A stretch of DNA of 64,000 nucleotides from an uncultured Gammaproteobacteria bacterium. GTDB taxonomy: Bacteria > Patescibacteriota > Microgenomatia > UBA8517. Positions 3,636-12,255 of the stretch are shown in pieces (position 1 is the stretch's first letter; the number at the start of each line of letters is the position of its first letter). The DNA lies in NCBI GenBank assembly GCA_964568925.1, contig CAZMSJ010000003.1:7452-71451 (forward strand), read 5' to 3'. The translations under genes were made by a program, and so were the position numbers. A model generated the notes under the pieces. The model was not told where the DNA came from. It saw only the letters and a list, made by a program, of their open reading frames with translations, and did no database searches.

Positions 3636-3842
3636 ATGTTTTTTCAACGTAGTAATCTAAATAGTTTGTTCGCATCAATGCGCAAAGTCGGAGAACGAGA
3701 CCGCGCAATCGAAATGGGGACAATCGAGGAATACATTCAAAAGTATGGACTGAACGACGCAGAGGCAAACCTGCTTCGTAGTCAGCAAAAACAAAGCAAG
3801 CAGAAGAAAGCACCCCAAATCGATTGGGACAATGTGAAGTAA
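3636..3842 (+). CDS. Small hypothetical protein
   Basis: ORF with ATG at 3636 (the track starts at TTG 3630). A terminator hairpin follows directly. No motif recognised. Confidence 0.35.
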   Translation: MFFQRSNLNSLFASMRKVGERDRAIEMGTIEEYIQKYGLNDAEANLLRSQQKQSKQKKAPQIDWDNVK

Positions 3843-3848
3843 CACCCG

Positions 3849-3878
3849 GGGGCGACACACAAGTCGCCCTCATTTTTT
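3849..3878 (+). terminator. Rho-independent terminator
   Basis: GGCGAC-ACACAA-GTCGCC hairpin (3851-3868) followed by T6 (3873-3878). Confidence 0.65.
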
Positions 3879-3884
3879 GTTGCT

Positions 3885-3992
3885 AAAGGAAACCCCGTAC
3901 GTAAGTACGGGGATGAATTTTGCCTTCCCTTCACGTTGCGAAGCTTCGTGATTCCCAAGGAAACCACGGACGTAAGTCCGTGGAGGTTCCTT
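3885..3992 (+). repeat. Two related GTAA-tetraloop hairpins sharing the 5' flank AAGGAAACC, in an intergenic region
   Basis: Hairpin A is CCCCGTAC-GTAA-GTACGGGG (3893-3912). Hairpin B is CCACGGAC-GTAA-GTCCGTGG (3964-3983), extended by the outer pairing AAGGAA(3957-3962)/TTCCTT(3987-3992). The palindrome CGAAGCTTCG (3939-3948) lies between them. Confidence 0.6.
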
Positions 3993-4095
3993 TTGTCTTA
4001 AACAAAAACTCCCTTTGCTATTCAGAGGCTATGCTCCTATAATACAATACTGTTCAGTTTGAACATTTACATATAAAAACAAAAGGAGATCCTTT

Positions 4096-6216
4096 GTGTT
4101 CTATCAATTGAGAAAACTCAGTCTCGTCGTCTTTGCATTTTTTGCCCTTTCAGTACCACTGGCTGGGCTCAAAGCTCAAGGCAGCCCGACTGCAACTGGT
4201 CTTGAATCAAGACTTTATGGCTACTGGTCGAGTGAAAACCCGTATGACCCGTCAACCCAAATGGCAGGAAGTGAAACCTTTGCATTTTATCCAGGAAATA
4301 TCATGTACTGGGTGAATTTTGAAAGTGCCATGATTGGCACGTACACTGCAACCGAAGACTATTTTGTCTTTACCGGAACCTTGTATGCATTTGGGGAACA
4401 AACCCCGTCTACAACAACGTTTCCGTATCGAATCACTGACCAAGGGTTAGTCATTCCGATTGAAGGCAACTCAATGCCGCTCACAAAAGTTGCGGCATAC
4501 AAAGATAATGAACCCTACGCTTGTGGCACATCGCTTCCGAGTCAAATGCATACCTCATATATCGGTCGCGTAACATACACCGATGGGACACGGACACGAC
4601 TGCGTTCAAACCCTACGGTTTCGTCAGCAATTCTTCTAGAAATGGATGAGGGGACGCAATTTGTAGTCCTTGATGGGCCAGTCTGTGCTGATGGCTACGC
4701 TTGGTGGAAGATTTGGCTGGGTTCGCTTGTCGGTTGGTCAGCAGAAAGCTTAGATCATTACTACATCGAACCATCGCTTGAAATCTACAACTATCGACCA
4801 ATAACACAAGTACCAACGGAGCAAACGATCGTCGGTCAATGGGAAGGATCCTTTGAAAGTTTGAAATTCTTGCCCGACGGAACGTTGAACTTTTGGGAAC
4901 ACAATTCAACTGATGTTAAAACAGGGACCTATCAAGTTTCTGAAAACACGATCACGATGCAAGTTCAATTTTCACCTGGGAAAAAGACAACTCTTTTCTA
5001 CCCATTTGAATTAAACGGCGATTCACTCATTTTCATTGAAGACAATATTGCACTCAATCGATCATACACACGCATTGTCACAAACACCGGTAACTGTACC
5101 TATGCAAGTAATCTAGTTGTGGGATCGAATGCAAAAGTGACATTCATCTCAGGAAACACGCCACTGCTTATGCATGCGTCACCAGACGAGGGAGCAGAAC
5201 TTGTAGGAACTCTCTATGAAGGGACTGATGTCACAATTAAAGATGGCCCCATCTGTAATCAAGGTCTGTTTTGGTGGAGAGTCTTTAATTGGATGCAAGT
5301 ACATGAAGGTTGGGTACCAGAGCGCAATGCGGCAGGGGAATTTTTAACTCGTCTGACACATAACACGTTTGATACCTCCGCTACCTTTGATCCATTGAGT
5401 CTTGTACCAGATGGCCAATGGGCGATGGAACCTAACACTATTATGCGAACCTATGCCACAGCCGACACTTCCCAATTTGTTGGGTATCTGGTTCCCGGGA
5501 CGGCATATATCATTGTCGGACGAAACGCTGAATTTGGTATGTACCAAATTCTTGTGAATGGGCAGAAAACGTGGTTCTGTGGAACGGAAGGGTATAGTCG
5601 TGCAAACGATAACCTGATTCATGTACCAGTCACTGATCAAAGTACGTATAAATGCACATGGCAAGATTTCTACTTTGATCCAGCGGAATCATTGCAATCG
5701 GTTTCGGTTTCAACGAACGCGACCTACTATGCACCTGGCCAATATCCATTTGAAATGAAAATGGCATTGAGTTTGGCATCAGCCATTAGTAAAACTGGCG
5801 ACACCATTGACGTCATTAAAAGTAAGGCGAGTTCAATCTTAAGCTTACTGACCAATGCCGGTACTGTCGTAAAGATTTTGCGCAGTGGCGGAGTCGCAGT
5901 TGTTGGAACACCAACAGAAATTGCCTGTACCGTTGCAGATTTGCAAAACCTTGGTATTCCCGTTGGTGACAAGTCAGCAAGCCTTACGGCAGAACAAACC
6001 ATGGTTTGTATTGCAATTGACTCAACCAACGTCGGAATTGAGAATGGCAATTACATGGTTGGAACAAGTTATGCAGTAACACAGCTCTTCTTAAATGATG
6101 ATGCTTTGAATGAATTTGTTAACGGAATGCCCTTAACCAGAGGCTACTGTGGCCTAATGGAAAAGTTTGCAATCTTTAAACAGTTCCAATGCTTTGAAGG
6201 ACCTGGATCTAACTAG
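4096..6216 (+). CDS. Secreted protein with three SH3b-like modules
   Basis: AAGGAG (4083-4088) lies 7 nt before GTG 4096. Signal peptide MFYQLRKLSLVVFAFFALSVPLAGLKAQG. SH3b-like segments include ..TRLRSNPTVSSAILLEMDEGTQFVVLDGPVCADGYAWWKIW.. and ..LLMHASPDEGAELVGTLYEGTDVTIKDGPICNQGLFWWRVF.. Confidence 0.7.
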   Translation: MFYQLRKLSLVVFAFFALSVPLAGLKAQGSPTATGLESRLYGYWSSENPYDPSTQMAGSETFAFYPGNIMYWVNFESAMIGTYTATEDYFVFTGTLYAFGEQTPSTTTFPYRITDQGLVIPIEGNSMPLTKVAAYKDNEPYACGTSLPSQMHTSYIGRVTYTDGTRTRLRSNPTVSSAILLEMDEGTQFVVLDGPVCADGYAWWKIWLGSLVGWSAESLDHYYIEPSLEIYNYRPITQVPTEQTIVGQWEGSFESLKFLPDGTLNFWEHNSTDVKTGTYQVSENTITMQVQFSPGKKTTLFYPFELNGDSLIFIEDNIALNRSYTRIVTNTGNCTYASNLVVGSNAKVTFISGNTPLLMHASPDEGAELVGTLYEGTDVTIKDGPICNQGLFWWRVFNWMQVHEGWVPERNAAGEFLTRLTHNTFDTSATFDPLSLVPDGQWAMEPNTIMRTYATADTSQFVGYLVPGTAYIIVGRNAEFGMYQILVNGQKTWFCGTEGYSRANDNLIHVPVTDQSTYKCTWQDFYFDPAESLQSVSVSTNATYYAPGQYPFEMKMALSLASAISKTGDTIDVIKSKASSILSLLTNAGTVVKILRSGGVAVVGTPTEIACTVADLQNLGIPVGDKSASLTAEQTMVCIAIDSTNVGIENGNYMVGTSYAVTQLFLNDDALNEFVNGMPLTRGYCGLMEKFAIFKQFQCFEGPGSN

Positions 6217-6320: not shown

Positions 6321-7337
6321 GTGAAAAATAGATCAGGATTTACGCTACCATTTATCATTTTTATTAGTATTGTGGCATTGGGTGTGTTTATGTTTTTATC
6401 TTGGCACAAGTGGCAAGCAGAACACAACATAGGTCTCGAGTCAGGTAGATTCACCTCAACTGGTACAAACCAAAACACAGAGACATCTAACAACTGGAAA
6501 ACGTATAAAAACACAAAGTACGGATACTTGTTTATGCATCCAGATTCACTTCAAATAGATGAAGGCGAAACCTATTTGAGCGTCTTTCGTGAAGGAAGTG
6601 GTGGACTCATTTTTGAAATATCTATAAAAGATAATTCAACTATTCAAGAGATATTTGAATCTGACAAAAGACAGTATCAAGGCTATTTACAGAATAATGA
6701 CCCAAAACCGATATTGCAGGATATTGTTGTAGACGGTTTAGTTTCAAAGGAAACAGTATTTGCAAACGGTGTAATGGGAACTGATATGAAACGAATCTAT
6801 ATTAACAAAGGAAAGAACATTTATGTAATTAGTTTACCTAATAATGCAGAAATGGTTGGTCAACAAATTCTTTCCACTCTTAAATTGACACTCGACACTG
6901 TATTTTTAGAAAATGGGCAGTTGAATACTAAGGCACTTGAGAAAGAAAGTAATTGGAAAACGTATGTAAATAGCAATATTGGAATACAATTTAAGTATCC
7001 AATTTTAAATATTAGTAACTCTGCAGGAGCATTAAAGGAACAGGAAGGTTACCCGGGAGTTTCTCTCGGTGAAGCAAGTTTCACCGTAGAAAAGATACCA
7101 AGCATGAGCGCTCAAAGCTGGTTTGAGAGCAAAGGAAAAAGTCGAGGTAATCGTGTGAGCCAATTGAACCAAACACTTGTTAATGGACAAAGAGCTTACA
7201 ACCTAATCGTTTATTCTGATCCTGGGGATGAAACGATATTTCTCATAGAAAAAGATTCAAATTTGTACTTAATTTATTCTACGTTAAACAATGAACTCTT
7301 AACAAAGATGCTCACTACTTTTGAATTTATCAAATGA
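6321..7337 (+). CDS. Membrane-anchored hypothetical protein with a pilin/PilX-like N-terminus and two NWKTY modules
   Basis: N-terminus MKNRSGFTLPFIIFISIVALGVF (a K-x-x-G-F-T-L prepilin-like motif with no Glu at +5). Two modules start ..NNWKTYKNTKYGYLFMHP.. and ..SNWKTYVNSNIGIQFKYP.. Confidence 0.6.
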   Translation: MKNRSGFTLPFIIFISIVALGVFMFLSWHKWQAEHNIGLESGRFTSTGTNQNTETSNNWKTYKNTKYGYLFMHPDSLQIDEGETYLSVFREGSGGLIFEISIKDNSTIQEIFESDKRQYQGYLQNNDPKPILQDIVVDGLVSKETVFANGVMGTDMKRIYINKGKNIYVISLPNNAEMVGQQILSTLKLTLDTVFLENGQLNTKALEKESNWKTYVNSNIGIQFKYPILNISNSAGALKEQEGYPGVSLGEASFTVEKIPSMSAQSWFESKGKSRGNRVSQLNQTLVNGQRAYNLIVYSDPGDETIFLIEKDSNLYLIYSTLNNELLTKMLTTFEFIK

Positions 7338-7984
7338 AAAACAGAAATGGATTTGCTCATATTTTTCTTCTGGTTGTGTTAGTCATTATTGCCATTCTGT
7401 TTCTTGGAAGTTACTTATTTTTAGGTACCTTAAATCCAAAAACTGCGATTGTGGAACTTAAGGCTGCGATTGTTGCCCTTACCGCAAAACCAAACGAAGA
7501 AGATTCTTTGAAGACATATGACAACTTTAAAGTAGATCCAACGGCAGACTGGAAAACATACAACGGAATGACCGGAAGAGGAACGAGCTATACATTAAAG
7601 TACCCTCAAGATTGGACTTCCGATGAGAAATTGGGGTCAGGTGAAGGAGGGTGCAAAGGTCCGTTGTTCTTAACGCCTAATAAAAACACGTTCTTAAAAG
7701 TATGTGAGGTTGATAATATTTATGGAATTTCTAAAACACAACAGACTCTTTCGTCTAGTCCAGATGTTTATTCAAATATCACTCTCATTACGTCCCAAGG
7801 ATACAATGCTATCAAGTATGAAACACACGAGCCCTCATTTAATCAATATGAATACAACTTTGAGTCTGAAACTTCAGTAAAAAATCAAGTACTCTGGTTT
7901 CGATATGTTGTTGAGCTTCCTCAAAGAAACGAGGACAAAGAACTATTAAATTTAATACTTTCTAATTTCAAATTAAACAATTGA
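7334..7984 (+). CDS. Paralog of the preceding gene (pilin/PilX-like N-terminus, one WKTY module)
   Basis: ATGA stop/start overlap with the upstream gene. N-terminus MKNRNGFAHIFLLVVLVIIAILF. Module ..ADWKTYNGMTGRGTSYTLKYP.. Confidence 0.6.
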   Translation: MKNRNGFAHIFLLVVLVIIAILFLGSYLFLGTLNPKTAIVELKAAIVALTAKPNEEDSLKTYDNFKVDPTADWKTYNGMTGRGTSYTLKYPQDWTSDEKLGSGEGGCKGPLFLTPNKNTFLKVCEVDNIYGISKTQQTLSSSPDVYSNITLITSQGYNAIKYETHEPSFNQYEYNFESETSVKNQVLWFRYVVELPQRNEDKELLNLILSNFKLNN

Positions 7985-8009
7985 TCTAAGGAACAAGTTT
8001 GTTTTTTTA

Positions 8010-8038
8010 TTGACAAAAGAGAACCTGGTTCTCATAAT
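8010..8038 (+). promoter_or_regulatory. Sigma-70-type promoter for the thrS leader
   Basis: TTGACA (8010-8015), a 17-nt spacer, then CATAAT (8033-8038). Confidence 0.7.
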
Positions 8039-8044
8039 AAGGTT

Positions 8045-8215
8045 ACTTTTACTACAGTGAGAAGGATTAACCACCCTTTGAGTAGTAACAAGTCGATATA
8101 TCTCGTACAAGATAGAAGTCTTGAAGATTCTTCAAGAGAAGCGAAGTGGAACCACGGCATTAACCGTCTTCGCAAATGCATTTATTTTTAGGTGCGTTTG
8201 TGAAGGCGGTTTTTT
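8045..8215 (+). promoter_or_regulatory. T-box riboswitch leader (Thr specifier) with a truncated Stem I
   Basis: Antiterminator: A1 GCGAAG(8141-8146)/CTTCGC(8168-8173), 7-nt bulge TGGAACC (8147-8153, the canonical UGGNACC), A2 ACGG/CCGT. The mutually exclusive terminator is an 18-bp stem, 8162-8179/8194-8211, followed by T-run 8212-8215. Stem I: TTACTAC(8049-8055)/GTAGTAA(8082-8088), a K-turn-like AGU-GA / GA, a 5-bp helix, and a 9-nt loop AUUAACCAC containing ACC followed by A. Stem III is 8119-8125/8131-8137. The element lies directly upstream of thrS. Confidence 0.75.
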
Positions 8216-8229
8216 AGTACAATACTCAT

Positions 8230-10002
8230 ATGGACAAACAATCAACAGAATATCTCGATAATTTACGTCATTCAACGGCGCACCTTTTGGCTGCAGCCGT
8301 TATGCAATTGTGGCCACATGCCCACCGCACAATTGGTCCAGCAATTGAAAATGGCTTTTATTTTGATTTTGATATGGGGGACACGAAAATATCAGAAGAA
8401 GACTTCCCAAAAATAGAGGAAGTAATGCATAAGCTCGTTTCTGATTGGAAATCGTTTGAACGAAGTGAAAAGACTCCAGATGAGGCAAAACAAGAGTACC
8501 CAGGAAATGGATATAAACATGAATTAATTGATGAATTTGCCAAAGATGGTCAAACACTCACTTTCTACACTTCTGGCAACTATACCGATTTATGTCGAGG
8601 TGGACATGTAATGCACCCAAATAGTGAAATCAAACACTTTAAATTGCTTTCTGTTGCAGGTGCTTACTGGAAAGGGAATGAGAAAAACAAAATGCTCACA
8701 AGAATCTATGGAACAGTTTTTCCAACAAAAGTATTGCTTGATGAACACCTCTTGCGTCTTGAAGAAGCAAAGCAGAAAGATCACAAGAAACTTGGCAAAG
8801 ATCTCGATCTCTTTGTCTTCTCTGACATTGTTGGGAAAGGATTGCCTCTTTGGACATCAAAAGGTGCTACTGTTCGACGCGAGATAGAGCGATTTATTGT
8901 TGATGAAGAAATTGCCCGAGGATACCAACACGTCTACACCCCAGATATCGCTAACCTTGCCTTGTATGAAAAGAGTGGACACTACCCATACTACAAGGAT
9001 TCCATGTATGCACCAATCACGATAGATGACGAGCAATACATGCTCCGCCCAATGACATGCCCACACCACTTTGAGCTCTACCTGTCTCGACCACACAGCT
9101 ACAAAGAACTTCCTGTGAGAATTGCAGAACTCGCCAAGCTCTATCGGTATGAACAATCAGGAGAGCTTTCAGGACTTCTTCGAGTGAGAAGTTTTTGTTT
9201 GGCTGACGCACACATTATTGCAACGAAAGAACAGGCTGCAGTTGAAGTACAAAACGCTTTGAACTTAATTCAATACATAGCAGGGGTTTTTGGATTAGAA
9301 CCAGGAGTGCACTACCGATATCGATTGTCTCTCGGTGACAGAGAGGACTCAACCAAGTACTATAAAGATGATGTAGCCTGGGAGAATGCTGAAGGTGTTC
9401 TTCGAAATGTCCTGTCGTCCCAAGATGTTCCGTTCTTTGAAGCCAGTGGCGAAGCCGCTTTCTATGGACCAAAGATTGATATTCAGATGAAGAATGTAAA
9501 TGGCAAAGAAGATACCGCCTTTACCGTTCAGTATGACTTTGTCATGCCAGGTCGATTTAAGTTAACCTACACTGATGAATCAGGGGAACTAGTGGAACCA
9601 GTGGTTATTCACCGATCCTCAGTTGGAGCCATTGAGCGTGTCATGGCATTTTTAATTGAGCACTTTTCCGGTAATTTCCCTGTTTGGCTTTCACCCTCAC
9701 AGGTAACCATCCTTCCAATTGCTGATCGCCATCAGGAATACGCAAAAGTAGTCGCTGAAGCATTCAAAACAAAGCAAGTTCGGGTGCACTTAGACCTTCG
9801 ATCAGAGACTCTTGGCGCTAAAATCCGGGATGCAGCACACGAGAGAACCCCGTATGTGGTCGTCATTGGAGACAAGGAAATTGAAGCACATTCTCTCTCA
9901 ATTCGAGCTCGGGGAGGGTCAGATTTGGGTAGTATGACCCCTGAAGCTTTCCTTGAATTTGTACTTGAAAAAATTCAGTCAAAAAGTCTGCAATTGAGCT
10001 AA
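8230..10002 (+). CDS. thrS: Threonyl-tRNA synthetase (short form, begins at the editing/SAD domain)
   Basis: HSTAHLLAAAV editing-domain motif, class II core (..RPMTCPHH.., ..RVRSFCLADAHI..) and a C-terminal anticodon-binding domain. At 590 aa it has no room for an N-terminal TGS domain. Confidence 0.93.
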   Translation: MDKQSTEYLDNLRHSTAHLLAAAVMQLWPHAHRTIGPAIENGFYFDFDMGDTKISEEDFPKIEEVMHKLVSDWKSFERSEKTPDEAKQEYPGNGYKHELIDEFAKDGQTLTFYTSGNYTDLCRGGHVMHPNSEIKHFKLLSVAGAYWKGNEKNKMLTRIYGTVFPTKVLLDEHLLRLEEAKQKDHKKLGKDLDLFVFSDIVGKGLPLWTSKGATVRREIERFIVDEEIARGYQHVYTPDIANLALYEKSGHYPYYKDSMYAPITIDDEQYMLRPMTCPHHFELYLSRPHSYKELPVRIAELAKLYRYEQSGELSGLLRVRSFCLADAHIIATKEQAAVEVQNALNLIQYIAGVFGLEPGVHYRYRLSLGDREDSTKYYKDDVAWENAEGVLRNVLSSQDVPFFEASGEAAFYGPKIDIQMKNVNGKEDTAFTVQYDFVMPGRFKLTYTDESGELVEPVVIHRSSVGAIERVMAFLIEHFSGNFPVWLSPSQVTILPIADRHQEYAKVVAEAFKTKQVRVHLDLRSETLGAKIRDAAHERTPYVVVIGDKEIEAHSLSIRARGGSDLGSMTPEAFLEFVLEKIQSKSLQLS

Positions 10003-11235: not shown

Positions 11236-12255
11236 ATGCACGAAGACATCAACAGAATCAGAAACGAATTCATGGCTCTTGTCATGGACGCACAAACTGA
11301 ATCTGATATCGAGGCCTTACGAATTCGCTTCCTTGGTCGAAGTGGTGCTCTCTCACACATTACCAAAGACTTAATCGCTCTTCCTGTTGAAAAAAAGAAA
11401 GAAGCAGGAAAAGCTTTAAATGAAACAAAACAAATCATCGAGAACGCGCTCACCGCTCGTATTGATGAACTTCAACAGAAACAATCAAGCTCCTTTGATG
11501 ACACCGTTCCTGGTATTGAACCAGTGATCGGACACACCCACATTGTTACCCAAGCAATTGATGAAATTTCAAAAGTATTCACAGACATCGGGTTTATCAG
11601 AAGACGATACCAAGAAGTTGAATGGGATTGGTATGCCTTTACTGCGCTAAACTTCTCTGAAAATCACCCAGCACGAGACGAATGGGAAACTTTTTTAATC
11701 GATGAAAAAGGACCAAAGTCGTTGGGAGGCATGATTTTGACCCCTCACACATCAAGTGGTCAGGTCCGAGAAATGCAACGCATTGAAACTCCACCAATTC
11801 GAATGATTAACATTAGTAAAACATACCGACGACAGTCTGATGTTTCTCACGTTCCAATGTTCCATCAATTTGAAGGGTTAGTTATTGATGAAAATATAAA
11901 TATCACCCATTTAATGGGGACCCTCGACTACTTTATGAAAACATTTTATGGTCCAGAAAGAACCTATCGAATACGCCCATACAATTTTCCATTTACCGAG
12001 CCATCATTTGAAATTGATATCGCCTGTTCCGTATGCAAAGGAAAAGGATGTCGATTGTGTAAAGCTGGATGGCTTGAGTTAGGTGGAGCAGGAATGGTGC
12101 ACCCAAATGTACTCGCAGCAGGCAACATTGATCCAAATAAATACAAAGGATATGCTTTCGGTTGGGGAGTAGAGCGTGCTTTTATGATGAAGGCAAACCT
12201 GTGGGATATTCGTATGGTCTATTCAACTGATTCTCGATTCTTAAAACAATTCTAA
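11236..12255 (+). CDS. pheS: Phenylalanyl-tRNA synthetase alpha subunit
   Basis: Class II motifs (..FEGLVID.., ..GGAGMVHPNVL.., ..GWGVERAFM..) and the pheS-pheT pairing. Confidence 0.93.
   Translation: MHEDINRIRNEFMALVMDAQTESDIEALRIRFLGRSGALSHITKDLIALPVEKKKEAGKALNETKQIIENALTARIDELQQKQSSSFDDTVPGIEPVIGHTHIVTQAIDEISKVFTDIGFIRRRYQEVEWDWYAFTALNFSENHPARDEWETFLIDEKGPKSLGGMILTPHTSSGQVREMQRIETPPIRMINISKTYRRQSDVSHVPMFHQFEGLVIDENINITHLMGTLDYFMKTFYGPERTYRIRPYNFPFTEPSFEIDIACSVCKGKGCRLCKAGWLELGGAGMVHPNVLAAGNIDPNKYKGYAFGWGVERAFMMKANLWDIRMVYSTDSRFLKQF

Follow-up and report, generated by a model that had tools for sequence, protein, structure and literature searches.

In the 64,000-nt stretch of DNA analysed here (hereafter called the window), the threonine-tRNA ligase gene thrS is separated from an unannotated ORF (7334-7984) by an intergenic region (7985-8229) and is followed by infC, rpmI, rplT, pheS and pheT. 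Our analysis confirms that positions 8045-8216 of this intergenic region are a T-box leader of thrS in a CPR-like bacterium. The initial annotation had proposed a thrS T-box with a complete switch, and all the elements that it listed were located in the sequence (Table 1). Its starting point has to be moved: position 8010 belongs to the -35 hexamer of a promoter (P1), and the predicted transcription start of the leader lies near 8045. The nearest relatives of the ThrS protein are found in metagenome-assembled genomes (MAGs) of Patescibacteria/CPR. The host therefore looks like a member of this group, judged from its ThrS neighbours, in line with the CPR-type genome suggested initially.

Table 1. 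Features of the thrS leader and of its surroundings (positions in the window)
Feature	Position	Strand	Remarks
Promoter P1	8010-8015 (-35); 8033-8038 (-10)	+	TTGACA, 17-nt spacer, CATAAT; 11/12 consensus matches
Stem I, ultrashort hairpin form	8045-8093	+	Rfam alignment, folding, covariation
Stem I basal helix	8049-8055/8082-8088		7 bp; extendable 4 bp by 8045-8048/8090-8093
Stem I K-turn	8056-8060/8080-8081		AGU bulge 8056-8058; GA 8059-8060 opposite GA 8080-8081
Stem I upper helix	8061-8065/8075-8079	+	5 bp
Apical specifier loop	8066-8074	+	AUUAACCAC, 9 nt; ACC (Thr) 8070-8072, purine A 8073
Small hairpin	8094-8105	+	CGA-UAUAUC-UCG, 3 bp; aligned by Rfam to Stem IIA
Stem III	8119-8137	+	8 bp, 3-nt loop
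Antiterminator (discriminator)	8141-8173	+	-9.7 kcal/mol
Antiterminator helix A1	8141-8146/8168-8173	+	GCGAAG/CUUCGC
T-box bulge	8147-8153	+	UGGAACC, 7 nt
Antiterminator helix A2	8154-8157/8164-8167	+	ACGG/CCGU
Intrinsic terminator hairpin	8163-8210	+	22 pairs; -32.3 kcal/mol; U-run 8210-8215
Putative promoter P2	8218-8229	+	-10 TACAAT 8218-8223, 6 nt before ATG 8230; genome's leaderless geometry
thrS, threonine--tRNA ligase (regulated gene)	8230-10002	+	590 aa; TIGR00418, 639 bits

The 5' half of the leader is reduced to a very short Stem I. The basal helix, K-turn-like loop, upper helix and ACC loop described initially were all found, the base being longer than described if its possible extension is counted. 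The K-turn at the base of Stem I is of the GA-motif type, as read at the sequence level. The specifier ACC-A agrees with the amino acid of the downstream gene, and its codon is followed by a purine. It had also been claimed that Stem I ends at the specifier loop, and this holds: the leader has no long Stem I whose AG bulge and distal loop would form the elbow-binding IDTM, and the alignment to the Rfam T-box model RF00230 deletes 72 distal Stem I model positions and replaces them by 5 nt. Since P1 lies directly 5' of Stem I, its -10 box ending 7 nt before it, neither a longer Stem I nor a distal platform could be accommodated. A longer Stem I or a platform located further upstream was also considered and rejected, the promoter abutting Stem I, the upstream ORF ending at 7984 and Rfam deleting the distal part. 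In relatives too, a TTGACA-17-TAnnnT promoter lies just upstream of Stem I (judged by eye). The spacer of P1 includes a perfect 15-nt palindrome (GAGAACC-T-GGTTCTC, 8019-8033) that is present in a single copy in the window. It could represent an operator or a mere coincidence; the operator reading was not retained, such a palindrome arising by chance in 15 of 100 shuffles and being imperfect (GGGAACC…) in another strain.

The region between Stem I and A1 is short, 47 nt in the window and 28-49 nt across the window-like leaders described below (type A), so that a Stem II domain cannot fit. This domain (long stem, S-turn) is missing from the leader and is deleted in the RF00230 alignment; the gap holds at most a small hairpin and Stem III. 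A 4-bp pseudoknot between UAUC (8099-8102) and GAUA (8111-8114) is possible in the window, as is a 5-bp one in the related locus L005. A conserved Stem IIA/B pseudoknot was not retained, being plausible only in these two leaders and not in the others.

The 3' half carries the hallmark of T-boxes, i.e. a 7-nt bulge with UGGN in an antiterminator helix (8141-8173), and A1, the UGGAACC bulge and A2 are all as described in the initial annotation. Strand 8163-8173 is common to the 3' side of the antiterminator and to the 5' arm of the terminator, and the two folds are mutually exclusive. This reuse and the U-run, which ends 14 nt before the thrS ATG, had been recognized previously; the 18 bp attributed to the terminator become 20-22 pairs, including G-U pairs. 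It is a terminator of the canonical kind. Folding of both conformers, as had been suggested, gave -32.3 kcal/mol for the terminator versus -9.7 kcal/mol for the antiterminator on the shared strand, which indicates that the default state is off, as in other T-boxes. The fold of the full leader has a z-score of -5.2 compared with shuffled sequences. The pair that closes A2 beside the bulge is A-U in the window versus G-U or G-C in several relatives, a difference that would weigh against the T-box reading.

A local Rfam scan matches the leader to RF00230 end to end (model positions 1-219) with 42 bits and an E-value of 4e-8, and its alignment agrees with the initial annotation on the positions of the K-turn, the specifier helix, a IIA-like hairpin, Stem III and the antiterminator. 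The covariance-model match that this annotation called for therefore exists, but only below the gathering score of RF00230 (93 bits). A score so far under this threshold counts against the T-box reading, and a scan of the whole window at the gathering threshold returned no match. Thirteen loci with related leaders also have no RF00230 match at the gathering score. Since the members found here score below the Rfam threshold, curated models miss riboswitches from CPR. No further T-box was detected in the window by Rfam, by our own covariance models or by a scan combining motif and helices.

A ThrS scan of species-representative genomes and metagenomes provided 160 loci, mostly from Patescibacteria/CPR and Dehalococcoidia, about 30 of which have a T-box with UGGA ahead of thrS. 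Among 31 CPR thrS T-boxes, at least 26 present ACC in the apical, 7-9-nt loop of a hairpin. A hairpin followed by a U-run overlaps the antiterminator in 25 of 31 related leaders. The refuting conditions set out in the initial annotation, this overlap among them, all came out in favour of its reading, the one on tRNA-Thr with the tRNAs of relatives. The TGGAACC bulge is invariant in 24 leaders. Two types can be distinguished. Type A groups leaders that resemble that of the window, with a K-turn and the specifier loop consensus N-Y-U-N-ACC-A-N. Thirteen of them (window, L005, L009, L010, L011, L014, L015, L018, L026, L086, L095, L136 and L157) were aligned (alignment A4) with a covariance model built from the window and iterated once; two others, L167 and L169, were recognized later by eye and are outside this alignment. 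All 13 have a Stem I of 43-51 nt and an invariant ACC-A, and most of them retain the K-turn pattern C-NNN-GA ... (G/A)A-G.

Covariation is strong in these 13 leaders. Paired cells amount to 91.3% versus 56.4% in shuffles and 32-45% with slid partners; these percentages are inflated towards the structure because the alignment was fitted to the model, but the contrast with slid partners is still clear. Both sides change in 30 of 31 pairs, and the observed value was reached by none of 500 shuffles. In helix 1, 10 of 11 pairs change on both sides, as do all five pairs of helix 2, and the position of the small hairpin that follows Stem I (helix 3) covaries. A1 and A2 are 100% and 96% paired, respectively, and every one of their pairs covaries.

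Some type-A leaders depart from the window in their 3' half. In L026 (9678-9830), L167 (1880-2012) and L169 (1880-2012), an alternative hairpin without a U-run buries the AUG of thrS, which makes them translational variants of type A. L167 and L169 lack Stem III and have only a 15-nt linker instead, and are the smallest T-boxes among the leaders examined. In L086 (1340-1460), L095 (167-320) and L157 (9289-9420), and possibly L136, the base of A1 is extended by a further helix of 5-7 bp, which is followed by a U-run. The bulge-bearing hairpin of these leaders therefore itself looks like the terminator, and the 5' strand of the added helix may be in competition with a mini Stem III, a switch geometry that differs from that of the window. 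L014 (5235) and L018 (9568), both labelled Saccharibacteria, have a CGGA bulge in place of UGGA, so that the base expected opposite A76 of the tRNA would be C.

The leaders of type B (14 in alignment A6: L016, L022, L024, L027, L029, L032, L033, L055, L056, L071, L097, L100, L104 and L120) have a 7-nt anticodon-like loop, (C/U)UACCA(A/G), just preceded by an invariant AUUG. All six pairs of their specifier hairpin show compensatory changes. Their basal helix (…GAUUG … CUAA…) appears to enclose this hairpin and one or two more. Furthermore, a related metagenome contig, L109, encodes on its minus strand (~3700-4150) a more canonical-looking T-box (AAAGGUGGUACCGCG), with a UGGU bulge, a long upstream region and a terminator, which precedes an unidentified gene.

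The bulge of the window would require a tRNA-Thr with U73. Related CPR loci hold four tRNA-Thr genes (anticodons GGU, UGU in two of them, and CGU), all with this base, which would pair with the A of UGGA. The comparison covers these related loci; no tRNA gene was found in the window or in the five contigs of the same species presented below.

Taken together, the leader is probably (about 80%) a T-box that would respond to tRNA-Thr(GGU) and gate transcription from P1, a strong promoter by its sequence, into thrS. The anatomy of the sequence, the covariation, the conservation, the two competing folds and the tRNA compatibility in relatives are observations, whereas tRNA binding, the sensing of its charging state and the activity of both promoters are what we infer. 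The nascent leader would first make the short Stem I hairpin, whose K-turn and 5-bp helix would offer ACC and the stacking purine of the apical loop to the anticodon of the tRNA. Past the short linker and Stem III, the UGGAACC bulge would pair with the UCCA 3' end (U73) of uncharged tRNA-Thr. This pairing would steady the weak antiterminator, and RNA polymerase would read through. With charged tRNA, or none, the terminator would form on the shared strand and transcription would stop at the U-run. The second promoter, P2, located just past the terminator, would probably supply a basal expression of thrS that is independent of the T-box.

Such a mechanism has to do without the grip on the tRNA that known T-boxes have. 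In current models, the three-base codon-anticodon contact needs reinforcing by a distal platform or by the Stem II S-turn, and for transcriptional T-boxes in particular these models call for the platform, which lets the tRNA bind in the time that the polymerase takes to get to the terminator (PMC7583486, PMC10482949). According to a 2020 review, transcriptional T-boxes cannot do without the IDTM, and a truncated Stem I hardly binds tRNA in the absence of Stem II (PMC7583486). These requirements count against the T-box reading, which has to account for the capture of enough tRNA ahead of the terminator. The leader could be a working T-box that is less minimal than it seems, in which an unrecognized element replaces the contact with the elbow or with Stem II. 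Such a role could fall to the small hairpin and pseudoknot (8094-8114) or to Stem III, but also to a protein or to a slow or paused CPR RNA polymerase. The published need of a short Stem I for Stem II, the pseudoknots that can be drawn in the window and in L005 and the covariation at the position of the small hairpin all speak for such a contact. However, the loop sequence of this hairpin is not conserved, L011, L014, L018 and L026 have only a single hairpin in the gap before A1, the gap of L167 and L169 is devoid of hairpins, and no conserved sequence was found beyond ACC-A and the T-box bulge. We therefore regard a hidden contact as a tentative and rather unlikely explanation.

The T-box is probably not the only way to express thrS in this genome. 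The initial annotation had pointed out, as an oddity, a TACAAT hexamer 2 nt after the terminator U-run and 6 nt before the ATG. The hexamer is indeed there, but its position corresponds to the usual geometry of leaderless promoters: TAnnnT is found exactly 12 nt upstream of the start codon of 10 of the 57 window ORFs, thrS included, versus 0.83 expected. Moreover, a Shine-Dalgarno-like motif precedes just seven of these 57 ORFs, and leaderless mRNAs seem to predominate in this genome. Examples are found at 11236, 14161, 14766 (-), 17853, 54612 (-), 56435 (-), 57210 and 58019, with -35 boxes that are mostly weak. The same spacing between -10 box and ATG occurs in three ThrS relatives devoid of T-box: L081 (76% identity), L166 (74%) and L003. 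Since TACAAT fits this geometry, its most likely role is that of a second promoter (P2), which probably gives a leaderless thrS mRNA bypassing the T-box and which could make the T-box partly dispensable.

Not all relatives have this bypass. The U-run abuts the AUG in L011 and L015, which lack a second promoter. This arrangement, like the AUG sequestration in L026, L167 and L169, implies that leadered mRNAs without Shine-Dalgarno are translated and that the T-box is the sole expression route of thrS in these five genomes. The T-box is missing from other loci with a close ThrS relative (68-70% identity): in L006 (~640-900), L034 (~9700-9990) and L168 (1830-1960), its place is taken by a short leader ORF that contains a run of 6-7 Thr codons (MKHFMLITTTTTTIPAGE, MTTTTTTIPAGE and MTTTTTTTNPAGE, each ending at a stop codon), then hairpins and a GC-rich terminator. 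These thrS leaders look like ribosome-mediated attenuation systems. L157 (9289-9500) has both a type-A Thr T-box and, directly after it, a leader ORF rich in Thr codons (MKNIMQKTTTTTTQRQLGGGVVV and a stop codon), about 600 nt upstream of thrS; two threonine sensors thus appear to be arranged in tandem.

The T-box of the window could then be a relic or a minor regulator, with leaderless mRNAs from P2 accounting for most of the expression of thrS. The geometry of P2 is the norm in the genome of the window, the closest ThrS relatives, L081 and L166, have only such a promoter and no T-box, and there is no Shine-Dalgarno between the terminator and the ATG. However, all helices and motifs of the leader are intact, P1 is close to the consensus and, in L011, L015, L026, L167 and L169, the expression of thrS depends on the T-box. 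Strain comparison goes in the same direction. Five contigs from independent samples, one of which is the MAG GCA_017994745.1, encode a ThrS 99% identical to that of the window; since all five share one thrS nucleotide sequence, this is effectively a comparison of two lineages. Between these lineages, 96 of 1773 sites of thrS differ (5.4%), including 85 at third codon positions (14.4%), as do 35 of 651 sites of the upstream ORF. The 185-nt leader shows a single change, T8086C in the basal helix. Under a binomial model, such conservation has a probability of about 1e-11 if the third-position rate is applied and of 4e-4 if the overall coding rate is used, values to be read with the local variation of rates in mind, since infC is also little diverged. 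The six leaders of this species are nearly identical and hence inform on conservation, not on covariation. A conserved island between divergent flanks argues against a decayed relic, and we consider a relic or a minor regulator improbable.

Finally, one could argue from the lack of any hit at the Rfam gathering score that the leader looks like a T-box only by chance and that the hairpin merely ends an upstream transcript. This idea is practically ruled out by the full-length match to RF00230, by a specifier codon that agrees with the downstream gene, by the covariation in 13 leaders, by the existence of about 30 leaders of like design and by strain conservation.

The classification published in 2023 recognizes four classes of T-boxes, in which binding is augmented by the IDTM, Stem II or both (PMC10482949). 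Two of them are transcriptional: class I, which possesses both elements, and class II (glyQS), which keeps the IDTM but lacks Stem II. The other two are translational: class III (actinobacterial ileS), whose Stem I is short, bears the specifier at its apex and needs Stem II, and class IV, whose Stem I is intermediate (PMC10482949). With neither platform nor Stem II, the leader of the window lies outside all four. No T-box from CPR/Patescibacteria and no terminator-type T-box with an apical specifier loop was found in the literature searched, whose coverage is incomplete. It is an even bet, in our opinion, that these leaders represent a fifth T-box architecture, widespread before thrS of CPR, with the specifier in an apical loop similar to an anticodon loop, no platform, no Stem II and mostly acting co-transcriptionally through intrinsic terminators. 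If this is true, codon-anticodon and NCCA pairing would suffice for the kinetic sensing of tRNA, against the rule of "IDTM or Stem II or both", and the member from the window would in addition carry a leaderless bypass promoter. A conserved family of ~130-nt T-boxes devoid of both grips but endowed with terminators would provide a direct test of minimal tRNA recognition. Such T-boxes could also serve as a compact scaffold for engineered tRNA sensors.

Ultrashort Stem I forms were reportedly described by Sherwood et al. in 2015 for the translational ileS T-boxes of Nocardia farcinica and Mycobacterium tuberculosis. Like these class III elements, the window leader has a short Stem I without IDTM, an apical specifier above a K-turn and the same discriminator core. 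However, class III ileS needs the Stem II S-turn and the IIA/B pseudoknot that clamp the anticodon, whereas the window leader has no space for Stem II. Moreover, its apical loop has 9 nt versus 5-6 nt, its output is an intrinsic terminator whereas class III sequesters the ribosome-binding site, and its gene (thrS), codon (ACC) and CPR-looking host differ from those of the actinobacterial ileS leaders. With class II glyQS of Bacillus subtilis and Geobacillus, it shares the lack of Stem II, the short linker with Stem III and transcription termination, but glyQS keeps a long Stem I and a distal IDTM on the tRNA elbow that is experimentally essential, whereas Stem I of the window stops at the specifier loop. 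With class I thrS/thrZ of B. subtilis (RF00230), it shares the gene, the ACC specifier, the UGGN bulge and the terminator/antiterminator logic, but not the AG bulge and distal loop on a long Stem I, Stem II and IIA/B. The initial annotation had noted that a reduced Stem I of the actinobacterial ileS kind appears to be joined here to a transcription terminator, a view that stands and to which we add that Stem II is missing too. As read from its sequence, the window leader unites a Stem I like that of class III with a back half like that of class II and a terminator.
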